Counted from the first letter of the whole stretch, positions 1-57,909 are shown. The stretch is 63,104 bases of DNA, filler included, from 7 parts of 7 records of this genome joined end to end with filler, not necessarily neighbours in it, one strand, 5' to 3'. Numbers and translations are program-made. Notes: generated from the sequence alone by a model not told the origin.

Positions 1-167
1 AGCGCCTTTGCTTGTCTCGTCGAGAACAAAGGCGGCGACAACCGGACGCCCTGTTCCCGCGGCGGCGCAAAGGGCAAGATTATCGCTGAGGCGCAAATCA
101 TGCCGGAACAGGAGCAGCACCGGACGCTCATCATCGGGGACCATGCACTCTCCCATGCACATCAGGG

Positions 168-410
168 TCAATCATCGTTTGTGGCGTTGAGTTGTTCGGG
201 GCGCAAGCCCTCACGGCCACCTTCCTGCGTCTTTAGAAGCCCTTTCGAAAGAGCCCATGTTCTGAGTGCTGTGAGGAGCGCCTGCTCACGGGTCATCCCG
301 GCGCCCTCCATGGCGCTGAAGCGGTCGAGGGCCGCAACGATGTCGTTTGGAAGCGCGCGCGATAAAGTGGCCAGCGAGGTATGAGGCCGTGTGTCAGGTT
401 GCTGTTTCAT
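168..410 (-). CDS. small hypothetical protein ending GLRPEQLNATNDD
   Basis: 80-aa ORF with ATG start; the C-terminal GxxPxxLNAxND-type motif resembles small alphaproteobacterial proteins. Confidence 0.55.
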   Translation of the reverse strand: MKQQPDTRPHTSLATLSRALPNDIVAALDRFSAMEGAGMTREQALLTALRTWALSKGLLKTQEGGREGLRPEQLNATNDD

Positions 411-555
411 GGTTCCCGCCCGAATCTGGTGTGTTCACATACAATCGGTGCGGTTTAAAAACGTTCCGTCGATCTCAGGCAGCTCACGCATCCGTGTTCG
501 GGTCGTGCACAGGGACGGGCGTGTTCGAGGGACAGCATTCAGCAAGAGTGCCGAC

Positions 556-2133
556 CTACGGCTGGGAATGCTGCCAGAACGGGCGGAACGCCTGCAATCG
601 CTTCCAGTCTTCGATCGTGGCGGGCCAATCATAGACGCTGCGTGTTTCACAGGCTCCCAACAGGCGGCCGATGGCGCGTTGCGCGGACGGGTCGTTGATG
701 GAGGAGAGTGGCGGCCTGCAGAGAATCAACTGGGTCACGGCTGCGTCGTTCAGACTGCCAAACATCGTTTGCAGCGTTTTCAGCCGGCTCGATAACCGCT
801 TCACATCGGCAGGCGCGTAGAGGGGGCCGAGGAACTCTATCGCATAGCGGAGCTTTTTCAGCGCCTTGCGCAACGCGTGTTTCTGATCCGTGGCGAAGCT
901 CTCGATCCCTTCAGCGCGGGTGAGGAGGTGGTTCCACCGTTTTTCCAGTTTCTCATCTGCCAGATCTTTGAGTTTTCGGTTGGGTTTTGCCGGTGTGCGA
1001 AGACCTGTCTGGATCAATTCGGAGAGACCAAGCAAAAAGACGTTCACGCGCTCTGTAGACAGCGTATGCCGGAGATCGGCACGAACCTTACGGGCGTGCC
1101 GCTCAAGTGTGCTCAAAACGAGGTTTGCGCCGGGTTCCCGGTGAATTCTGGCATAGAAAGGGCGGGCGACATCGTTGAGGACGACGTCAAGATCGCGCAA
1201 GCGCCCAACCTCGTGGCCCAACCAGCGTGCCTCATTTGCAAACTGGATAACAATGGAGGGTTCGATCACCCTGTTGAACAGGGAAAGCGCGCTGCGCAGC
1301 CTCCGAAGGCCAATGCGCAATTGATGTGGGCCTTCCATATCCTCGGTTTTCCGGACAGCCTCGATGTTTGCTGAAATCTGCGCCAGACATTCCTGCAGCA
1401 TGTCCTGGGCTGCTTCGCCAATGCTGCTCTTTCGGGTAATCGGCACGCGAACTGCCTTGCGGGGCACGGCAGGGGGCTCGATGTAACCGTGTTTGGCCAG
1501 GAGAACACTGCGTGCCGCCTTGGAGAAGCGGGAAAACCTCAGGGCGCCATCCGGCAGTATCATGCGTGCGCCTCTGTAGAGGCCGGTTGGGTGTCCCTCG
1601 ATCAACTCGATCTCGAGCTCATGGAGAGGGGCGCTGCGTCCTGCTGCCTTCACGGCGCCGCTGTCTAAAGCGATTTCGGCTTTTGTACCGTCGTCGAGAT
1701 GAAGGTCGACCTGCGTGCGGCGTATGCGGGTTTCAGCAACCGTTTGGAGTTGGGTGTTCTTAACGAGCCGTGTGATGCGATCCCGGACTTCCTCGTTTTC
1801 GATTGCATCGATGGAAACCACGCCCGCAGGAACCATCCGCTCGATTTCGGTGACCCTGGACAGACCGCCTTTGATGGAGCCGTCGAGCTTGACCGTTTGC
1901 AGCCATTGCGTGCCCGTGCACCGAAGACGCAGCGTAATTCCATTTTCGCGCAGAGCACCTTCCGGCGTGTCGAAATAGAGGCTGTGCAGATGCCGTGTGC
2001 CGCGTATCCTGCGTGTTGCGGTAGGTAGTCGCTCGATGCGCGCGAGAGTGTCGGGCACTTGCTGTTTCTCCAGCAAAAGCTTCAACTCGATTTCTGGCAA
2101 GAAAGATCCCCGCAAATTCCGCAGTGCGAGCAC
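556..2133 (-). CDS. CYTH + CHAD domain protein (inorganic triphosphatase YgiF-like)
   Basis: N-terminal EIELK (ExExK), YFDTP, LRLR and ELEIEL CYTH motifs; HQLRIGLRRLRS, LRDLDV and HALRKALKKLRY CHAD motifs; true start may be TTG at 2100. Confidence 0.9.
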   Translation of the reverse strand: MLALRNLRGSFLPEIELKLLLEKQQVPDTLARIERLPTATRRIRGTRHLHSLYFDTPEGALRENGITLRLRCTGTQWLQTVKLDGSIKGGLSRVTEIERMVPAGVVSIDAIENEEVRDRITRLVKNTQLQTVAETRIRRTQVDLHLDDGTKAEIALDSGAVKAAGRSAPLHELEIELIEGHPTGLYRGARMILPDGALRFSRFSKAARSVLLAKHGYIEPPAVPRKAVRVPITRKSSIGEAAQDMLQECLAQISANIEAVRKTEDMEGPHQLRIGLRRLRSALSLFNRVIEPSIVIQFANEARWLGHEVGRLRDLDVVLNDVARPFYARIHREPGANLVLSTLERHARKVRADLRHTLSTERVNVFLLGLSELIQTGLRTPAKPNRKLKDLADEKLEKRWNHLLTRAEGIESFATDQKHALRKALKKLRYAIEFLGPLYAPADVKRLSSRLKTLQTMFGSLNDAAVTQLILCRPPLSSINDPSAQRAIGRLLGACETRSVYDWPATIEDWKRLQAFRPFWQHSQP

Positions 2134-2334
2134 GCTCGGCTACGGTTTATACTAGACCGGATCCATACAGGATGAAACGTTCTTGCGGCGCAAACCATTC
2201 GCGCTGGCCCGGGTTTCGTGAGGAGTTGCAAGGATCAGGTGGTGACAATTAGCACGCAAAGGCGGCAAACCGCTAGCGAACGCAGTCCGGCCGAAAGGCG
2301 GCTGGCACAATATCGGACGTCTCTTGATAAAGAA

Positions 2335-2351
2335 TGGCTCCCCGGGCCGGA
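2335..2351 (-). other. att core: duplicated 3' end of tRNA-Asn (TCCGGCCCGGGGAGCCA)
   Basis: The reverse complement of TGGCTCCCCGGGCCGGA looks like T-stem, acceptor stem and CCA of alphaproteobacterial tRNA-Asn(GTT); the match stops at the T-loop; it lies about 140 bp upstream of the integrase. Confidence 0.75.
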
Positions 2352-2467
2352 GTCATTTTATCGAAAATGCTGTTCCATTGTAGACACTGCGGCTTAGTAA
2401 CTCCCTGAAATCGCTTGTATTCGCTGACCATGCTATCCATAGTGGTTACCACTAGCGCAAAGCCCAT

Positions 2468-2487
2468 TGTGGGGAAAATGTGGGGAA
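2468..2487 (+). repeat. direct repeat TGTGGGGAA x2 (11-bp period), putative integrase arm-type sites
   Basis: tgtggggaaaatgtggggaa lies between att core and integrase start; palindrome TAGTGGT-T-ACCACTA at 2440-2454 is nearby. Confidence 0.5.
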
Positions 2488-2494
2488 GACTGCT

Positions 2495-3691
2495 ATGGGG
2501 AGCCACACTCTAAACGCGTTGACGGTCCGTCAAATCACGACAAGCAAGAAGGCAAAGCTGCGTGACGGTGGCGGCCTTTGGCTGATTACAAAAGGCAGCA
2601 GCCGTTACTGGATTTTCCAATTCAGTATGAACGGCAAGCGGCGCGAGATGGGGCTGGGGCCGCTGCATAGTGTAGGGCTTGCCGAGGCGCGGGAGAAGGC
2701 CGCAAGCGCGCGTGCATTGGTGCGCCAGGGTATCGATCCTATCGCGCAGAAAACCATTGATGCGATCGAAGATGCGCGCGCCGTTGGTGGTGCCAAAACC
2801 TTTGGTCAGTATGCAGACGAATTTGTAGATAAAGCGGTCAAGGCTGGCCGTTGGCGAGGCAAGAAGACTGAGGCTCGCTGGCGGAACATTCTCAATAATC
2901 ACGCGGCGGGCATTCGGGATAAGCCGATTGCAAAAATCGAGGTCGCGGACGTGCTGGATGTCGTCAATCCTCTATGGGGGATTAAGCAGGAAACGGCGGA
3001 AAAGCTTCGCGAGTCTATCGAGCGCGTTTTGGACGCCGCGAAAGTGGAAGGATTGCGGGAGGGTGACAATCCTGCGGCATGGCGCGGGAACCTTGAACAC
3101 GTGCTCCACAAGCCCGATGCGATCGCACGAACGAATAATTATGCGGCTATGCCTTGGAAAGATGTTCCCGCGTTCATGCGGCGATTGCGTGGCCTTGAAA
3201 CCGTGGGCTCGCAAGCGCTCGAATTCACAGTTCTGACAGCCGCACGGAGTGGCGAAGTACGGGGTGCGATGTGGAGCGAGTTCGATTTAGATAATGCACT
3301 GTGGACTATTCCCGCAGCGCGCATGAAGGCGGGAAAGGTGCATCGCGTTCCGCTTTCGCCGCGCGCAGTCGAATTGCTGCAGTATAGAAAGCGCATGGGG
3401 CTGAATGATTTCGTCTTCCCCGGTGCGCGCGACAGGCGGCCAATATCGGAAAACACCATGTCAAAAGTGCTCCGCGACAATGGCGGGGCAGGATTCACGG
3501 TGCATGGTTTCCGTTCTGCATTTCGCGACTGGGTTACCGAATCCACCGCATTTGACGGGGATCTTGCTGAAATGGCACTGGCGCACGCCGTAGGAGACGC
3601 GGTGGCGCGAGCTTATGCGCGCAGCGACGCGTTAGAAAAGCGGCGCGATCTTATGAACGCATGGGAACAGCATTGTGCCAGACACAACTAA
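2495..3691 (+). CDS. int: P4-like tyrosine integrase
   Basis: Arm-binding N-terminus (DGGGLWL...GKRREMGLG); catalytic R (TAARSGE), HGFR, LAH and AYAR motifs; ATG at 2495, alternative GTG at 2480. Confidence 0.95.
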   Translation: MGSHTLNALTVRQITTSKKAKLRDGGGLWLITKGSSRYWIFQFSMNGKRREMGLGPLHSVGLAEAREKAASARALVRQGIDPIAQKTIDAIEDARAVGGAKTFGQYADEFVDKAVKAGRWRGKKTEARWRNILNNHAAGIRDKPIAKIEVADVLDVVNPLWGIKQETAEKLRESIERVLDAAKVEGLREGDNPAAWRGNLEHVLHKPDAIARTNNYAAMPWKDVPAFMRRLRGLETVGSQALEFTVLTAARSGEVRGAMWSEFDLDNALWTIPAARMKAGKVHRVPLSPRAVELLQYRKRMGLNDFVFPGARDRRPISENTMSKVLRDNGGAGFTVHGFRSAFRDWVTESTAFDGDLAEMALAHAVGDAVARAYARSDALEKRRDLMNAWEQHCARHN

Positions 3692-3834
3692 TCATTGTGC
3701 CAGCATAAATTTCGCTTGACTTTTTTAGGTGAAAACGTCTAAATATTCGGTTGTTATCCAAATGGTTGGATATAACCCATCATGGCCAATATAGGTCATA
3801 TCCAGAATATGTGTCAAGAGGAAATTTCGGAAAA

Positions 3835-4038
3835 ATGCAGGCACAGAACGATAACTACCCGCTCGTCTCCCTCAATGATGCAGCGAAGATGTGCGCGCTT
3901 TCCCGCACCATGGTCAACCGGTATCGCGCGGAAGGCCGCTTTCCGCGTGCCGTTCAACTCGGTGAGCGCCGCATCGCCTTCGTGCGCGCCGAGGTTCAAG
4001 AGTGGATTAACGAGAAGATTGCGGCACGCGCCGCGTGA
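3835..4038 (+). CDS. alpA: AlpA family transcriptional regulator/excisionase
   Basis: LVSLNDAAKMCALSRTMVNRYRAEGRFPRAVQLGERRIAFVRAEVQEW is a typical AlpA HTH; located right after the integrase. Confidence 0.9.
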   Translation: MQAQNDNYPLVSLNDAAKMCALSRTMVNRYRAEGRFPRAVQLGERRIAFVRAEVQEWINEKIAARAA

Positions 4039-4376
4039 CGGCCACCAAGCCCAACAATGAAGAACCGCGGGCAACGCGGCGAACCCATTCACCCAACGGG
4101 GAAATACCAAACTTGAAAATCGAGAACTGCAGGCCAATCCGCCACCACGGCGGAGGGCGATTCCGCGACGTTGCGGAATTTGACGCCGTTATCGCGGACG
4201 GATTCCGCGCAAATGGTTTGAAGCTCGCCATCGCTGCAGATGGCAAAAAGTTCGTGTTCGCACCGGCGAAGAATGGCCGGCGCTTTGCCACACTACGAGG
4301 CGATTACGCACGTCAGCTCGCTGAAGCTGCCTGGAACAAGCTGGAGGGCCGTGTCGCCGATGCATACGACCAATAA
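4035..4376 (+). CDS. hypothetical protein, possibly SpoVG-like nucleic-acid-binding fold
   Basis: GTG start overlaps the alpA stop; beta-rich pattern VAEFDAVIADGFRANGLKL...GKKFVFAP. Confidence 0.6.
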   Translation: MTATKPNNEEPRATRRTHSPNGEIPNLKIENCRPIRHHGGGRFRDVAEFDAVIADGFRANGLKLAIAADGKKFVFAPAKNGRRFATLRGDYARQLAEAAWNKLEGRVADAYDQ

Positions 4377-6066
4377 TCTTCCCACTCTTGACGAAATCGT
4401 CGGCCTTGTCGGTGGCGAGCCAGATCATGAGGCGGGCGTTATTCGCGGCGCCGCTATAGCGGACAATCCGTGCAACATCTTCGTTTCTGGATGGGGATCC
4501 TACAAGGTTGCTCCGCAAGCAGGAGCGAAGCGCGAGCGCCGGGAGCTGCAGGCTTACCTTAACGTCCTTCTCGACCTGCCGGTTATCGATCCTGACGCTG
4601 ACAACGACAACGGACCGGTCGACGTCTGGGCGCGTCGCCAAAGTCCGCCACTTGTGCCGGATGTACTGCCGGACACCATTGGGGCATTCGCGGACATTAC
4701 AGCCGATGTGATGGGCGTCGATGCGGGCGGCCTAGCCATGGCAGCGCTTACAGCCTGCGCAGCCGCTATCCCTGACAGCATCAAGATCCAGCCAAAGGAG
4801 CATGACCAGTATTGGCGCGAATCTGCGCGGATATGGACAGCGATTATTGGCGGTCCGTCTGCGAAGAAGTCGCCGCTAATCAGCGCCTCCTTGCGCCCAC
4901 TGAAACGCATCGATGGTGAGATGCGCCAACGATACCTCGAAGCCAAGGTGAAGTACGATGCGTTGGACAAGGCCGAGAAGGTGAAAGCACAGCCGCCACG
5001 CCACGAGCGCTTGATCCTGGGTGATACGACACCGGAAGCTGCTGCAGACGTGATTAAGGACAGCCCCAACGGTGTGCTGCTCGCGCAGGACGAGCTTTCA
5101 GGCTGGTTTGGCAGCATGGAGAAATACGCAGGCAGCGGACGCGGTGCGCAGAAGGATCGCGCCTTTTGGCTCGAAGCGTTCAACGGCGGGCCGTACAGTG
5201 TCGACCGCGTCGGTCGCGGATCCATTCACGTGCCGAATCTGTCGGTATCGCTGGTCGGCGGGATCCAGCCGGAACTCATTCGCTCGATCGCGCGCGACAG
5301 TCTGGATGACGGCCTACTGCAGCGACTTTTTCCCATTGTCCTGCGTAAAGGCCGTATGGGCAAGGATGTGCCAATGCCGGATGTCGGGAAAGAATACCAG
5401 CGTCTCATAGAACGGCTGGTGCAGTTGAAACAGCCTAAGCGCGGCGACTTTCCGGTCGATGTGGTTCGGTTCTCACCAGAAGCACAGGCAATCTGGCGTG
5501 AGGTGACTACCCGAAACTTCGAACTGGCTTCGTCCTGGGAGGCTGTCAATTCGAAGCTGGCCGCGCATTTTGGCAAATACGACGGAATGTTCGCGCGCTT
5601 GTGCCTCGTGTGGCATTGCATCGAAAGCGAAGGTGACAGGCCGGCCGCGCTGGTTTCGGAGAGCGTTGCAGCCCGTGTCCGCGACTTTCTGTTTGGCTAC
5701 CTGATGCCGCATGCGATCGCATTCTATACCAATGTGGTCGGTCTCTCAGACAAACACGACGCGCTGTTGGCTACCGCGGGTTGGGTACTAGCCCACAAGA
5801 AGAAAGTCGTTTCCGTACGCGACGCACGCCAAGCTGTCCGGCCGCTCAAGAGTGCCGACCGGCAGGTGGCTGAAGACGTTCTGGAGCAGCTGGACGCCTT
5901 CGGCTGGCTGGAGCCAATCCACACAATCATCCGACGCGATTCCAGACAGTGGATGGTCCGTTCGGTGGTACACGAGAAGTTCGCAGACCGTGCCGTTGAA
6001 GAAGCCGAACGGCGGGCCGAAGTCCGTCACCTGATAGCCAATAGCGTGGAAACACTGGCTGCATAA
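4360..6066 (+). CDS. DUF3987/YfjI-type replication helicase-like protein
   Basis: Deviant Walker A (IIGGPSAKKSP), DTTPEA, Walker B (LLAQDE), LVGGIQP and DDGLLQR motifs; ATG at 4360 with GGAGGG upstream. Confidence 0.85.
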   Translation: MHTTNNLPTLDEIVGLVGGEPDHEAGVIRGAAIADNPCNIFVSGWGSYKVAPQAGAKRERRELQAYLNVLLDLPVIDPDADNDNGPVDVWARRQSPPLVPDVLPDTIGAFADITADVMGVDAGGLAMAALTACAAAIPDSIKIQPKEHDQYWRESARIWTAIIGGPSAKKSPLISASLRPLKRIDGEMRQRYLEAKVKYDALDKAEKVKAQPPRHERLILGDTTPEAAADVIKDSPNGVLLAQDELSGWFGSMEKYAGSGRGAQKDRAFWLEAFNGGPYSVDRVGRGSIHVPNLSVSLVGGIQPELIRSIARDSLDDGLLQRLFPIVLRKGRMGKDVPMPDVGKEYQRLIERLVQLKQPKRGDFPVDVVRFSPEAQAIWREVTTRNFELASSWEAVNSKLAAHFGKYDGMFARLCLVWHCIESEGDRPAALVSESVAARVRDFLFGYLMPHAIAFYTNVVGLSDKHDALLATAGWVLAHKKKVVSVRDARQAVRPLKSADRQVAEDVLEQLDAFGWLEPIHTIIRRDSRQWMVRSVVHEKFADRAVEEAERRAEVRHLIANSVETLAA

Positions 6067-6070
6067 CAAG

Positions 6071-6175
6071 AGTGGGGACGACTGGAGATTGCGCGCGAGA
6101 CAAAAAAGTTTTTGAGGGGGGATTCTATAATTCTTTCTCACCTTGCCACGCGCGCAATCCCCATATGTCCCCACT
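6071..6175. repeat. bipartite inverted repeat around an A/T-tract core; putative element origin
   Basis: AGTGGGGAC-N7-GATTGCGCGCG ... 51 nt ... CGCGCGCAATC-N7-GTCCCCACT, directly after the replication gene. Confidence 0.7.
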
Positions 6176-6199
6176 TCAATTTCAACCGAGGAGACAACC

Positions 6200-6395
6200 A
6201 TGGGAATTACGCGTGTTCGCAATCGAACCCTTTATCGCAGACCGTTTTGTTATCGATGCTGATGGAAGCGGCTGGCAGCAATGCCGTGTGATTGGCGTGA
6301 CCATGCAGGACGGCGCGCCCTTCTACATAATTGAAGTGAGCGAGGCCGGTGAGACGCATCTGACCACCACCGAGACCATCCGGAAGCGGCCCTAA
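6200..6395 (+). pseudogene. small hypothetical gene with an apparent +1 insertion after the start codon
   Basis: GAGGAG RBS then ATGGGAATTA; deleting one G gives MELRVFAIEPF...IRKRP, which continues the 6072..6395 frame. Confidence 0.5.
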
Positions 6396-6408
6396 GGGAG
6401 GAACCTCA

Positions 6409-6543
6409 ATGCGCCAATCCTACTCCACCAGCTTCGGCGTAACGATGAGACGCATATCGTGGCAGCGCTTCTGGCTGCTACGCCCCGACCTGCGGCCCGT
6501 GGCGAACGATAACAGATCGCAGCCAACTGCACGGGCCGCCTGA
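6409..6543 (+). CDS. 44-aa peptide ending in an ssrA-tag-like sequence (not in ORF track)
   Basis: AGGGAGG RBS; translates as MRQSYSTSFGVTMRRISWQRFWLLRPDLRPVANDNRSQPTARAA*; an internal ATG could be the start. Confidence 0.7.
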   Translation: MRQSYSTSFGVTMRRISWQRFWLLRPDLRPVANDNRSQPTARAA

Positions 6544-6655
6544 AAGTCCAGAAGCGCCCCGATGCGGTACCGGCCGCACAGCAAAACGCGTTACGCCGCA
6601 GGTTTTAAAGAAGTGATCCAAGCGCCCGCAGAGGCGCATTCCAAGGGAGTTACCA

Positions 6656-7893
6656 TGCCGACATTTGACAGGAGCGCAGAAGTCCCGAAAGGGCAGCGCT
6701 TTTACACTAGCCCTAAAACCATGAAGACATGGGGAGCTGGCGGCCCGCGCGTATCCGGCGCGACCGAAGAATATGAAACTCAAGGCTGGCTAGTCACACG
6801 ACCACCGGAAGGTAGAGCATGGGATGACTACCACCCTGTTCGCCTTCGTCGCGTGCTGCGGCAGCGTGTGGAGCCCCAAGGCTGGATAGGCGCAAGAAAA
6901 GCACCCACGAAGCGCGGCACGGTTATCCCATTTCCTAACGATGGCCCCAGCGCAGATTGGCTGGCGCAGCGGAATGCCGCCGGCCATGCAACCAAGACAG
7001 ACCGCCCTCTGACAATGGTAGAAGGCGCGCTGGTGCGCTCAAAATCGCCACTCGTTATTACGTTGCGGCGGGTGTCCGAGTTAATGCGTCCTATCACCAT
7101 GACGGCTGCAAATGACAACGAACCTGACGACGATGAGGATGCGAATCCCGGTGTGGGCCTTGAGAGGAAGCACAGCCAATCGAACATGCTTCCCAGTATC
7201 CCCGAGATGCTTGCGGCGTTCGCAGACGGAATGCGTCCTCGTGTCGTCACCGATAAAGGTGGGAAGATGAAGCGCTTCCCAGGCGGCCGGACGTTTCAGG
7301 GTGGCTGGCAGCTAATAGGCACCACCGACCATGGCAATAGTCTGTCCGGTCTCATTTTCATCGACGGTGAGCTCATTGCTTATGGTGATTACAACGGCCG
7401 GCGTCGCAAGCCAAAATACCTCGATGGCATGGTGACGGAGCAGAAGTTTGACGATGACTCCGTGACGGCTGACCACGTTCGACGGCAGGACGGCGAGAAC
7501 GAGACCTATATTCGCCTTGGTGGTGGCAGGCAGCCCGCAGCCAACGACAACGCCCCGCCTATGACAATCGACGGCGTCCCGGTTCGCCGGTTCCCTGCCG
7601 GCATCGCTGCTGGGTACGGCAGGCTCGCGGGCGTTTCCGAATCGAAGGGCGTTGGCAAGGACAGGACCAGGGCACCGCGGAGCGAAGTTCTGAACGAGAT
7701 GGAGCGCACTGACCGCCTTGCTGAGATGGAGCTAGACCAATGCGACCTGGATATCATCGAAGACGTGTTGGCTGACTTCTCCTATACGAGGATTGCGCAG
7801 GAGCGCGGCTACGCTCAGTCGTCGGCGCACAGGTCAGGCAAGCGGCTGGTCGAAAACGCCCTTACAAGAATTTCTGAAAAAATCGCGGCCTAA
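6656..7893 (+). CDS. hypothetical protein with C-terminal HTH (sigma-70 region 4-like)
   Basis: Long ORF (frame open from 6562; AAGGGAG before ATG 6656); C-terminal FSYTRIAQERGYAQSSAHR HTH pattern; two AANDN motifs; ends KIAA. Confidence 0.7.
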
Positions 7894-7950
7894 GTACCGA
7901 AACGGCCAGAATACAGCCCCCTTTAGTGAGGGGCACGGTTCCCAAACTCA

Positions 7951-7977
7951 GGGCGGCTTCGGCCGCCCTTTCTATTT
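7951..7977 (+). terminator. intrinsic terminator
   Basis: GGGCGGC-TTCG-GCCGCCC followed by TTTCTATTT. Confidence 0.75.
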
Positions 7978-8019
7978 GCCTGAGCTCAATCCCAATTTTT
8001 TCAAAAAGGAGGCGGTCCG

Positions 8020-8514
8020 ATGACGAAGTCGGAGTATCTCGCCCTGCTGTCACGCCGTCTCGGCGTTACGGCCGTACACGTCAGAGCAATCGTCGATCGT
8101 CTCCACGACGCCGGCATGGTGACGCCAACACGCTCAAAACGGCATCCTCCGCCCATCGATGAACCCGACGTGGTCGCCATCCTGCTAGCGGTCATCGCCG
8201 ACCGAGGTCTCGAACATGCCGCAGACAATGCCTGGCAGCTCGCAGCCGCGCACCATAATGGCGAGCAGTTCTCGGACTTCATGACCCAGCTGCTTTTCGG
8301 GCCGCCGCGCCATGTTGGGCACGTAATCATTCATCGTGAAGGTGCGTCCATCGTGGTCGATGCCGTGCACATGGAGTTTGGTGAGCGCAGCGAAGTGCCG
8401 ATCAGGTTCATTCCTGGCGGGGTGCTGATGGCCATTGCCGCGGAACTTCAGGGCGCATCGCCACGCGATGCAGACGCTATCGCAGCAATTACAAGGATCC
8501 AGAATGGAAATTGA
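8020..8514 (+). CDS. hypothetical protein with N-terminal HTH-like region
   Basis: AAGGAGG RBS; LSRRLGVTAVHVRAIVDRLHDAGMV resembles a wHTH. Confidence 0.7.
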   Translation: MTKSEYLALLSRRLGVTAVHVRAIVDRLHDAGMVTPTRSKRHPPPIDEPDVVAILLAVIADRGLEHAADNAWQLAAAHHNGEQFSDFMTQLLFGPPRHVGHVIIHREGASIVVDAVHMEFGERSEVPIRFIPGGVLMAIAAELQGASPRDADAIAAITRIQNGN

Positions 8515-8818
8515 CGAACTGATTGATGCCGCTGCCCGCGCGGCAGTGGAAGACCCCGCATCGGCAGAACATGCCGCCTCAGAGCGGGAAGCCCTTCTGG
8601 AGCATGGCAAAGAGGCCAAGCATCATGTGTGGGAAATGCATTACGCTAACGCGACCATGCGTGCCCACCTCCGCAAAAAGCTGGCTGCCAGCCCGCCAGC
8701 CTTTCAGGCTGCCGTTGCGGCAGTTGAAAACATCCTCGCCGATGAGTTGGCGGAGGACAACAAGCGCCGCGCGGCGATCCGCGCCGAATACCCGAATCTC
8801 TATAAGGAATACGAATGA
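8504..8818 (+). CDS. hypothetical helical protein
   Basis: AAGGA RBS; overlaps the upstream gene and the capsid start (ATGA coupling). Confidence 0.65.
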   Translation: MEIDELIDAAARAAVEDPASAEHAASEREALLEHGKEAKHHVWEMHYANATMRAHLRKKLAASPPAFQAAVAAVENILADELAEDNKRRAAIRAEYPNLYKEYE

Positions 8819-9470
8819 CGAACATCGCATCGATGATCACCGACCTTGGTGACAAATTCAAAGCCACCACCGAAGACCTTTCCGCCCGTCTTTCCGATCT
8901 CGAGCGCCGCGCCGCGCGCGCAAATGGCGATCACGAGTATGCCGCGAACGATAACCAACAACTCCCCCTGGCTGCAGCAATCGCCGGCAGTGATGAGATT
9001 GCGGACCTGTCCAGCGCGTTCCGAGGCAAGGTCACGCTGAAGCTCCAGGAACAGAATGCCGCCATTACGAGCGCGCCTTCGACGGTGGGTAACAACACAT
9101 CCGCGGGTACGTCCCTCGTGCCGACGCATCGCGTCGATGGTATCGTCACTCCCTATGAACGGCAGCTCCGCGTACGCGACGTAATCGGCCAGGCTCGCAC
9201 CACCTCCAATGCAGTTGAGTACGTTAGGGAAGAGAGCTTTACAAACAACGCCAATGTCGTTTCGGAAGGCGCGAAGAAGCCGCAGTCGGACCTCGGTTTC
9301 GAGCTTTACACGGCGCCGGTTCGCACCATTGCCCATACCTTCAAGATCAGCCGTCAGATGCTTGATGATGGGCCGGCCCTGGCTGCGTATGTGGGCCGAC
9401 GCGGTACCTACGGCCTGCAGTTCGTGGAGGAGCAGCAAATCCTTTTCGGCGATGGCACCGGCCAGAACAT
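8815..9470 (+). CDS. HK97-family major capsid protein (3' truncated)
   Basis: N-terminal coiled-coil/delta region, then LRVRDVI, VEYVRE, VSEGAKKPQSD, VRTIAH and ISRQMLDD motifs. Confidence 0.9.
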
Positions 9471-9570
9471 NNNNNNNNNNNNNNNNNNNNNNNNNNNNNN
9501 NNNNNNNNNNNNNNTTAATTAATTAANNNNNNNNNNNNNNNNNNNNNNNNNNNNNNNNNNNNNNNNNNNN
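9471..9570. other. artificial contig spacer
   Basis: N-run, TTAATTAATTAA (stops in all six frames), N-run. Confidence 0.99.
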
Positions 9571-9628
9571 TTAGAGCCGACCGCTCATAACGGTCTGGTT
9601 CCAGGTTCGAGTCCTGGTGGGCCCACCA
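9571..9628 (+). tRNA. tRNA with CAT anticodon, probably Ile2 (lysidine); 5' truncated
   Basis: Anticodon arm GACCG-CTCATAA-CGGTC; T-arm CCAGG-TTCGAGT-CCTGG; ends GGGCCCACCA. Confidence 0.9.
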
Positions 9629-9721
9629 TTGTCTTCATATCTTGACGCGACCAGAAATACCTGAGTCGATTTTTCGCAAGAAAAACAATGGTCGACCAGA
9701 ATTTTTGAGTCTCGGCGCATG

Positions 9722-9761
9722 GGAGGCTGGAATCGCTGAAACTTCAGCGTTTCCAGCCTCC
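9722..9761. repeat. 19-bp-arm inverted repeat (hairpin)
   Basis: GGAGGCTGGAATCGCTGAA-AC-TTCAGCGTTTCCAGCCTCC, one mismatch. Confidence 0.85.
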
Positions 9762-9885
9762 TTCGCCCTATGGAAGCTGCGATTTGTCTGGTAGTGGCCA
9801 TGGAGCGGACCGCGGCGCATCAAGTGAACAACTGAGAGCCTGTTTGGGCCGAGAATGAACGGCATCATCTCAAACGGAACCTTAA

Positions 9886-10647
9886 ATGCCTCGACCCACC
9901 TTACCCGACGTACTGGACCGCATGTCCACGGACGAGCGTGCGGACAAGGCGAAGCTTAAGATCAAGCAGGTCGTGGATCGAATTAGCGGCTTGCTAGCAT
10001 TGGCGGAGAGCAATGCCCTGATCGTCTATTCTCCATTGCTGTCCAGCCAAATCCGCCCATCCACCGCCGGCCATGCGTTCAATGTATTTCAAAGGGCGAT
10101 GCATGGCTTCGAGATCGTCCAGCTCTGCGCCCTCTGGGACAAGCCGGACTATAGCCTCGCCCACAACAGCATTCCAACGGTACACGCACTGATCGATCGC
10201 GACGACGTCGTAGAGCGATTGGTGGACGATGTGCGAAATTTCTGGCCGGATCGAACTGTATCGCAGGCCCCGTCTGGCCACACGCTTGCCAACTACAATA
10301 GCAGGATGCGGCAGGAAGAAGCCGGAAAAGCCCTTACGGTGCTGAGCGCCCTGCGGAAATCGGTACCTGAGACCCTCGCGTCCGACCTACTGAGTTCGGT
10401 CCGCAACCTTCGCGACAGGGAACTGGCCCACGCCTTGGAAAGAACGCGAGCCGAGGAACGAGCAACCGTGGCGCCGATGAAGTACGGGGATGAAAAGGAT
10501 TTGCTGGCAGTCACCACCCGAGTGATGGAAGACCTTTATCTCTGGATCACCGGCACCAATTTCGACCTAGATGAGAATCGTCGCCTCCAACGAGAGCGGG
10601 CGGAGGCACTATGGGGCAACTGCAGCTTCTCCATCCCGGGCAGATAA
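9886..10647 (+). CDS. HEPN-domain protein (AbiU2-like)
   Basis: All-helical pattern; IVQLCALWD and RNLRDRELAH (R-x5-H HEPN-type motif). Confidence 0.7.
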   Translation: MPRPTLPDVLDRMSTDERADKAKLKIKQVVDRISGLLALAESNALIVYSPLLSSQIRPSTAGHAFNVFQRAMHGFEIVQLCALWDKPDYSLAHNSIPTVHALIDRDDVVERLVDDVRNFWPDRTVSQAPSGHTLANYNSRMRQEEAGKALTVLSALRKSVPETLASDLLSSVRNLRDRELAHALERTRAEERATVAPMKYGDEKDLLAVTTRVMEDLYLWITGTNFDLDENRRLQRERAEALWGNCSFSIPGR

Positions 10648-21837: not shown

Positions 21838-21937
21838 NNNNNNNNNNNNNNNNNNNNNNNNNNNNNNNNNNNNNNNNNNNNTTAATTAATTAANNNNNNN
21901 NNNNNNNNNNNNNNNNNNNNNNNNNNNNNNNNNNNNN
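21838..21937. other. artificial contig spacer
   Basis: N-run, TTAATTAATTAA, N-run. Confidence 0.99.
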
Positions 21938-32001: not shown

Positions 32002-32101
32002 NNNNNNNNNNNNNNNNNNNNNNNNNNNNNNNNNNNNNNNNNNNNTTAATTAATTAANNNNNNNNNNNNNNNNNNNNNNNNNNNNNNNNNNNNNNNNNNN
32101 N
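32002..32101. other. artificial contig spacer
   Basis: N-run, TTAATTAATTAA, N-run. Confidence 0.99.
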
Positions 32102-41512: not shown

Positions 41513-41612
41513 NNNNNNNNNNNNNNNNNNNNNNNNNNNNNNNNNNNNNNNNNNNNTTAATTAATTAANNNNNNNNNNNNNNNNNNNNNNNNNNNNNNNN
41601 NNNNNNNNNNNN
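41513..41612. other. artificial contig spacer
   Basis: N-run, TTAATTAATTAA, N-run. Confidence 0.99.
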
Positions 41613-50740: not shown

Positions 50741-50840
50741 NNNNNNNNNNNNNNNNNNNNNNNNNNNNNNNNNNNNNNNNNNNNTTAATTAATTAANNNN
50801 NNNNNNNNNNNNNNNNNNNNNNNNNNNNNNNNNNNNNNNN
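50741..50840. other. artificial contig spacer
   Basis: N-run, TTAATTAATTAA, N-run. Confidence 0.99.
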
Positions 50841-57809: not shown

Positions 57810-57909
57810 NNNNNNNNNNNNNNNNNNNNNNNNNNNNNNNNNNNNNNNNNNNNTTAATTAATTAANNNNNNNNNNNNNNNNNNNNNNNNNNNNNNNNNNN
57901 NNNNNNNNN
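57810..57909. other. artificial contig spacer
   Basis: N-run, TTAATTAATTAA, N-run. Confidence 0.99.

Follow-up and report, generated by a model that had tools for sequence, protein, structure and literature searches.

Why would the proteins of one mobile element, among them an excisionase, a replicative helicase, and a capsid protein, repeatedly carry the head of the peptide tag that trans-translation appends in their host? The question arises from a stretch of 63,104 bases (hereafter, the window), in which seven contigs are chained by spacers of the form N...TTAATTAATTAA...N (positions 9471-9570, 21838-21937, 32002-32101, 41513-41612, 50741-50840, and 57810-57909). The element lies on the first contig (1-9470), with all of its listed genes on the + strand, and its gene content makes it reasonable to regard it as a capsid-encoding phage satellite of a Rhizobiaceae-type host. 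Five of its proteins contain Asn-Asp-Asn (NDN), six copies in all, in a context that matches the head of the ssrA tag encoded by the transfer-messenger RNA (tmRNA) of related hosts, and the complete carriers end in Ala-Ala (AA), as the tag does. Head and ending may together form a bipartite degron, delivered to the protease ClpXP by the adaptor SspB. A preliminary description of this DNA had placed six copies of the motif in five proteins and had listed four C-termini; every copy was present where it had been located, and the C-termini were correct. The carriers, with lengths in amino acids (aa), are as follows.

3838..4038, + strand: AlpA-type excisionase/regulator of 66 aa (Pfam Phage_AlpA, 1.3e-13) with the N-terminal tail MQAQNDNYP; AQNDNY, with NDN at 3847-3855 (+); C-terminus IAARAA.
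4360..6066, + strand: DUF3987 replicative helicase (Pfam DUF3987, 8e-58; PHROG DNA helicase), with ADNDNGP upstream of the DUF3987 domain; ADNDNG, with NDN at 4603-4611 (+); C-terminus ETLAA.
6409..6543, + strand: peptide of 44 aa behind a strong Shine-Dalgarno site; VANDNR, with NDN at 6505-6513 and ANDN at 6502-6513 (+); C-terminus TARAA.
6655..7893, + strand: regulator candidate of 412 aa with a beta-rich middle domain; AANDNEP and AANDNAP in disordered linkers, the two copies of AANDN at 7105-7119 and 7537-7551 (+); C-terminus EKIAA.
8815..9470, + strand: HK97-type major capsid protein, cut by the contig end (Pfam Phage_capsid from residue 98; PHROG major head protein); AANDN at 8941-8955 (+).

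The longest frame of the helicase begins at 4240, and the start at 4360 fits its closest homologue (568 aa). In the capsid protein, AANDNQQ stands in the N-terminal arm, 50 residues before the Pfam capsid domain.

Scanned on both strands, the whole window contained the pattern AAYGAYAAY, which specifies Asn-Asp-Asn, only six times, and 6/6 of these fell within 3847-8955, on the + strand and in frame. From the composition of the element (2,208 residues), 0.18 NDN, 0.022 ANDN, and 0.0028 AANDN would be expected, and 6, 4, and 3 were seen (Poisson P ~4e-8 and ~1e-8). The background sample consisted of the other contigs of the window and five related genomes. Among 38 open reading frames (ORFs) of at least 150 aa outside the element, on the other contigs (14,645 aa), there were 0 NDN and 0/38 AA ends, in keeping with the enrichment over background that had been set as a check. 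Permutations of the same residues did not share it: NND, DNN, NDD, and DDN were each found 0 times in the element and DND once. True ANDN was present in only 4/6 window copies, with Q (AlpA) and D (helicase) ahead of NDN in the other two.

The motif and the AA ending occurred in the same proteins. All four complete NDN carriers ended in AA (AlpA, RAA; helicase, LAA; 44-aa peptide, RAA; 412-aa protein, IAA) versus none of the five complete noncarriers (Fisher p = 0.008); the capsid C-terminus is not among these counts because the contig ends at 9470. The five motif-bearing genes, and with them all six NDN copies, also share one absolute reading frame, which may be chance (~1 in 81).

Five genomes with related elements (G001-G005; loci L015-L024) stand in for the host of the element. 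ARAGORN identified the tmRNA tag as ANDNYAEARLAA in 4/5 of these genomes and as ANDNNAKGYALAA in 1/5, with an ANDN start in 5/5, and each genome carried one SspB-family gene a few hundred bases downstream of its two-piece tmRNA gene (5/5). The tmRNA itself brings an alanine to the appended tag. With this alanine counted, the appended tag starts with AANDN and ends with LAA, so that the motif of the element equals the head of the host tag and its AA ends equal the tail; the likeness noted earlier is thus an identity with the tag head of related hosts that carry sspB. The Ala-Ala end is the part of the tag that ClpX binds. We know of no reader of the tag head other than SspB, and alphaproteobacterial SspB is reported to read the ANDN head. 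In the Escherichia coli tag, SspB and ClpX bind separate sites, and adaptor-dependent variants use the head alone (PMC9382460, PMC8138137).

The same signals were present elsewhere in the five related genomes. The ANDN pattern occurred 18, 15, 26, 33, and 35 times, versus 5, 1, 10, 10, and 6 times for a reversed control, and it clustered in mobile elements. A pattern of NDN, 4 to 12 further residues, AA, and a stop gave 18 hits in the five genomes (reversed control, 3 hits), 14 of them in frame, comprising the 5 tmRNA genes and 9 protein genes. The native tag spacing of 12 to 13 residues was thus found in the 44-aa peptide (13) and in the 9 protein genes of the related genomes; in AlpA, the helicase, and the 412-aa protein, the head and the AA end are 60 to several hundred residues apart. 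One such cluster, in genome G005, corresponds to a lambda-like prophage, which brings replication genes of its own along with a sigma factor, a gpA-type terminase, a portal, and capsid E. NDN was present in 13/36 of its early ORFs versus 2/38 of its late ORFs (p = 0.001), and AA ends were present in 15/36 versus 2/38 (p = 0.0002). The C-terminal tail of an SNF2-type helicase of this prophage (L009 15980-17719; G005:C24:220980-222719) contains ANDNVP, and the protein closes with DDIPF, which we take to be the ending of the bacterial SSB tail; if so, the protein would bear a second borrowed host peptide.

The motif is conserved at the level of protein. Through alignment of the 412-aa family, we gathered eight related loci (152,570 bases), in which the pattern was found 32 more times, always in an open frame of the gene strand and never on the opposite strand. 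The preliminary description had stated that the codons differ between copies: within the window this is true only to the extent of 3 of the 8 possible codon sets (AACGATAAC three times, AACGACAAC twice, and AATGACAAC once), whereas across the window and the eight loci (38 copies) all 8 synonymous sets occur. Codons for the flanking Ala and Pro residues likewise differ at their third positions. Over the 38 copies, the consensus is [A/V/P]-A-N-D-N-x-P, with Ala at position -1 in 27/38 and Pro at position +2 in 17/38. A separate stretch, NDNSSHPY, is shared by two neighboring large proteins (L005 13824-16235 and L007 15324-17426); it lacks the Ala/Pro context and is probably an ordinary conserved segment rather than the motif.

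Conservation in homologues, the second check that had been set, held for four of the five carriers. The 412-aa family comprised 50 homologues, and all named records among them were of Rhizobiaceae type. NDN was present in 50/50 (one copy in 4, two in 31, three in 8, and four in 7, hence at least two in 46/50), and 47/50 ended in AA, 41 of these in IAA. In an alignment of 29 rows (the window protein and 28 of the 50 homologues), ANDN appeared at both window sites in nearly every row, and the final three residues, IAA, were invariant. Longer N-termini in the family bring extra copies of the motif, two members (P0044 and P0045) retain it at moved positions, and it persists in protein alignments at 35 to 50% identity. 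A tblastn search of a 50,697-record phage collection gave no match to the family, although it is common in Rhizobiaceae genomes; the family may be specific to satellites. For AlpA, among the 120 best of 214 homologues, NDN lay within the first residues in 116/120 and an AA end was present in 100/120. Helicase homologues (n = 50) carried NDN in 22/50 and ANDN in 17/50 at the matching N-terminal site. In the closest relatives this site reads [A/P]ANDN-x-P. An AA end was present in 11 of the best 13 homologues, and distant homologues had neither NDN nor an AA end; no ANDE or ANDD was found at that site in the homologues lacking NDN. The capsid protein is the weak case, with ANDN at the same place in just 3/5 of its closest homologues and NDN in 9 of the 150 best, and for this carrier the conservation is limited to those close relatives.

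The 44-aa peptide resembles the tag most closely. The peptide closes with 13 residues, ANDNRSQPTARAA, that match a complete tmRNA tag in length and at both ends. Relatives of the peptide are encoded directly ahead of the gene for the 412-aa family in L003 (9105-9245; 46 aa; C-terminus ANDNRPENEKAA) and L008. The free-standing core of the peptide (RRISW...) also forms a module at the N-terminus of some 412-aa family proteins, for example at residues 14-35 of P0050, and this shared module suggests a history of splitting or fusion. An element-encoded tmRNA was considered in place of a peptide gene and rejected, since neither ARAGORN nor Rfam (E up to 1) found one in 1-10,500; the ORF was kept as a protein on account of its strong ribosome-binding site and conserved protein homologues.

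Copies of the motif lie in probably flexible parts of their proteins. An AlphaFold2 model of the 412-aa protein, based on the 29-row alignment, was poor overall (mean predicted local distance difference test [pLDDT] score, 56.7), and both ANDN copies fell within predicted disordered segments (148-177 and 280-342; pLDDT < 50) between the beta-rich domain and a confident C-terminal helical domain. Residues 337-412 of the model matched 3hug_A (Z 6.7; root-mean-square deviation [rmsd] 4.5; 72 residues aligned) and 6jhe_A (Z 5.8; rmsd 2.4; 52 residues aligned), and the C-terminal domain thus resembles sigma-factor domain 4 or a LuxR-type helix-turn-helix (HTH) at Z 5-6.7, where values of Z < 8 are common for helical models. 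The HTH label previously attached to this protein accordingly finds a middling fold match and no Pfam hit; the Pfam and PHROG searches with the whole protein gave no match. In AlpA the copy precedes the HTH, which starts at residue 10, and in the capsid protein it precedes the capsid domain, which starts at residue 98.

We also docked residues 1-125 of SspB from a related genome (locus L021) with residues 132-175 of the 412-aa protein, alignments not being used. The score was 0.34 in three runs versus 0.01 for the best of 3 controls, which is graded as weak support. The runs agreed in at least 71% of contacts, with a partner pLDDT of at least 46, and no interface was reported. The mark used for docking is reached by 51/78 solved complexes and by 2/108 mismatched pairs; scores at the mark but no higher than 0.60 were obtained for only 5 of the 78 solved complexes and for all 4 passing mismatches (of 180). 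Because orthologues of SspB have been solved (2nys, 2qas, and 2qaz), the docking pass may be a memory of known complexes.

How might the element use these signals? The likeliest answer, for which we consider the chances about evenly balanced, is that a gene-encoded SspB-binding head and a ClpX degron together make the early proteins of the element unstable. In this model, built from sequence comparison, SspB would recognize NDN within a flexible tail or linker, the tail of SspB itself would dock on ClpX and so tether the carrier, and ClpXP would then engage the Ala-Ala end and degrade the carrier. The excisionase, the replication helicase, the small peptide, and the putative late-gene regulator would in this way be kept short-lived, and their levels would decide excision of the island, its replication, and the switching on of late genes. 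With proteins this short-lived the island would remain silent, and inducing it would take sustained synthesis. The 44-aa peptide presents both signals at the native tag spacing, and in the other carriers they are split across the protein. We infer SspB binding, degradation by ClpXP, and the regulatory purpose from the pairing of the two signals and from their likeness to the host tag.

Several observations weigh against this model. Half of the element proteins (5/10) have neither signal, and one of the proteins that bear the motif, the capsid, is structural. Unlike the head of the native tag, most copies are separated from the C-terminus by tens to hundreds of residues. Pro at +2 (17/38) is foreign to the host tag, which has Ala there, and -1 is not always Ala (27/38 overall, 47/120 AlpA homologues, and Q and D in two window copies). 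In the early region of the G005 prophage, the co-occurrence of NDN and AA was not significant (8, 5, 7, and 16 ORFs; p = 0.09). The docking grade obtained with SspB is wrong in the majority of cases unless the proposed pair was already a likely one, and the sspB and ssrA genes of the element's own host are predicted from those of the five relatives.

Could the motif have no function in protein at all, and instead be a DNA or RNA site (an operator, a packaging signal, or a recombination signal), a compositional artifact, or chance? We regard this as extremely unlikely. NDN has just 8 codon sets, and DNA copies within the window therefore look alike, which would suit such a site; yet the gene strand carries 38/38 copies, each in an open frame, and the other strand carries 0, 8/8 codon sets are used, and the third positions of the flanking Ala and Pro codons vary. 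A DNA-level site was rejected on the grounds of strand, frame, and codon usage. Low complexity rich in N and D was rejected given the absence of the permutations NND, DNN, NDD, and DDN from the element, chance is opposed by the Poisson P of ~1e-8, and the motif is retained, while shifting position, among proteins of 35 to 50% identity. A prohead-protease cleavage site was set aside as well, most carriers (AlpA, helicase, regulators, and methyltransferases) not being virion proteins. A less drastic alternative, which we judge somewhat unlikely, is that NDN-x-P binds another partner, such as a host hub, ClpX or ClpA directly, or a protein of the element or its helper, and that the likeness to the tag is convergent or irrelevant. 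Such a partner would account for two departures from the native tag, the conserved Pro at +2 and a -1 position that accepts D, H, V, S, or Q; the docking support for SspB is weak; and any of the four element ORFs without a known family could encode a reader. Against this stands a five-residue match to the host tag head combined with the AA ending of the tag and, in 9 protein genes, its spacing, which is hardly coincidence. The motif is moreover found in unrelated elements (satellites and a lambda-like prophage) in which no common reader gene is obvious, no systematic search for one having been made.

The remaining explanations accept SspB as the reader and differ in what its recruitment achieves. 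If the motifs served mainly as decoys, they would occupy the few SspB dimers and ClpXP rather than destroy their carriers, and would thereby shield other proteins of the element or helper, keep ssrA-tagged products from being cleared, or make the stability of all carriers depend on the total protease load. The multivalency of the 412-aa family (up to four NDN per protein and at least two in 46/50) would suit such a role, as would a dedicated 44-aa peptide that is little beyond a tag, and in a related host the early proteins of a prophage are laden with these signals. In E. coli, SspB is scarce (52 to 356 dimers per cell) and proteolytic queues couple substrates (PMC9382460), although these copy numbers may not apply to the present host. 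A decoy has no need, however, of a motif on enzymes and DNA-binding proteins, nor of strict pairing with AA on the same proteins (4/4 versus 0/5), and we consider this explanation unlikely. More elaborate, and in our estimate quite unlikely, is a scheme in which the satellite senses its helper through a proteolytic queue, with the tag mimic as a shared currency in place of a specific anti-repressor. A resting cell would clear AlpA, the helicase, the 44-aa peptide, and the sigma-4-like regulator through scarce SspB-ClpXP; the early program of a helper would flood the cell with dozens of ANDN...AA proteins, as a prophage of the G005 type would; and SspB and ClpXP would saturate, so that the regulators of the satellite would be stabilized together and excision, replication, and late transcription would be turned on.

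Should the motif recruit SspB, as the degron model holds, sets of early proteins in alphaproteobacterial satellites and phages would be wired to one host protease by a literal copy of the trans-translation tag. Such wiring would explain the transience of excisionases, replication proteins, and activators, and would predict cross-talk among ribosome rescue, phage infection, and satellite induction. It would also provide natural, portable split degrons for the genetics of Rhizobium, Agrobacterium, and Caulobacter.

How far does such a degron depart from known systems? Gene-encoded ssrA-like ends and bipartite substrates delivered by SspB are already known. With the native alphaproteobacterial ssrA tag, the proteins of the element share the first residues, (A)ANDN, and the Ala-Ala-COOH end; the tail of the 44-aa peptide is of comparable length (13 residues versus 12 to 13), and sspB is linked to ssrA in 5/5 relatives. 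The signal of the element differs from the native tag in being gene-encoded rather than added by trans-translation, in having heads that are split from the end or placed in internal linkers, several per protein, and in its extra conserved Pro at +2 and variable -1 position. The stretch of E. coli RseA that SspB binds is not known to be related in sequence to the tag head. RseA(1-108) is a natural SspB-delivered ClpXP substrate with a C-terminal VAA (PMC8138137), and it resembles the element's carriers in being bipartite: a regulator on which the site for SspB and the C-terminal xAA degron are separate. The degron of RseA is exposed by cleavage, whereas in the element the AA is the encoded C-terminus and the head is a literal copy of that of the tag.

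We know of no SspB in the actinobacterial class of hosts. There, the repressor gp33 of mycobacteriophage BPs is inactivated through a gene-encoded C-terminal ssrA-like tag within a system of integration-dependent immunity (PMC4557955); as in the model proposed here, a temperate mobile element encodes an ssrA-like degron that destabilizes its own regulator. In the BPs case the C-terminal end alone is copied, one or two proteins carry it, and the host is actinobacterial; an adaptor-binding head is absent, and the signal is not element-wide. Engineered DAS+4 tags used with SspB depend on the SspB-binding head to deliver a protein with a weak ClpX signal (PMC9382460); they are synthetic and C-terminal only, whereas the version in the element is natural, often internal or N-terminal, and paired with a strong AA end. 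Pseudomonas phage pf16 also touches the SspB pathway, through gp18 (PMC5587285), but gp18 is an SspB homologue, so that the adaptor is copied rather than the tag. A Pfam search found no SspB-family gene among the ten proteins of the present element. New here is a literal, conserved adaptor-binding head that recurs among the early proteins of a satellite, one of which belongs to a regulator family in which as many as four copies occur and the xAA end is invariant; we found no description of the motif in phages or satellites in the open-access literature and bioRxiv.

What kind of element carries these genes? The five proteins without either signal complete its listed gene set.

2480..3691, + strand: tyrosine integrase at the left end of the element (Pfam Arm-DNA-bind_3, Phage_int_M, and Phage_integrase; PHROG integrase), without NDN; C-terminus ...RHN.
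4035..4376, + strand: ORF of 113 aa without a family in Pfam or PHROG, with neither NDN nor an AA end.
6165..6395, + strand: ORF of 76 aa without a family, with neither NDN nor an AA end; syntenic small ORFs with a similar core are present in L002, L003, and L008.
8020..8514, + strand: ORF of 164 aa without a family in Pfam or PHROG, with neither NDN nor an AA end.
8504..8818, + strand: ORF of 104 aa without a family in Pfam or PHROG, with neither NDN nor an AA end.

An integrase, AlpA, a DUF3987 helicase, and an HK97 capsid protein are thus all encoded on the element, as the label "satellite" in the preliminary description would lead one to expect, although the contig stops within the capsid gene. 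Because that gene is broken off at 9470, with a run of N from 9471, the remainder of the satellite is absent from the window. In the related Shinella element L002, the capsid gene is followed by genes for a small terminase, an HK97-gp10-like protein, and a tape-measure protein; a large terminase and a portal were not found within the stretch of L002 that was scanned. The gene set of the element and the continuation of L002 past the capsid together make the label reasonable.

Two further features concern the other contigs of the window. The start of the second contig (9571-9630) resembles the 3' half of a tRNA gene (the T-arm and the acceptor end), although ARAGORN made no call there, and a contig break inside a tRNA gene could mark the attachment site. 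The contig at 32102-41512 has a G+C content of 30 to 36%, versus 46 to 66% in the other contigs, and is either foreign DNA or a mis-binned contig.

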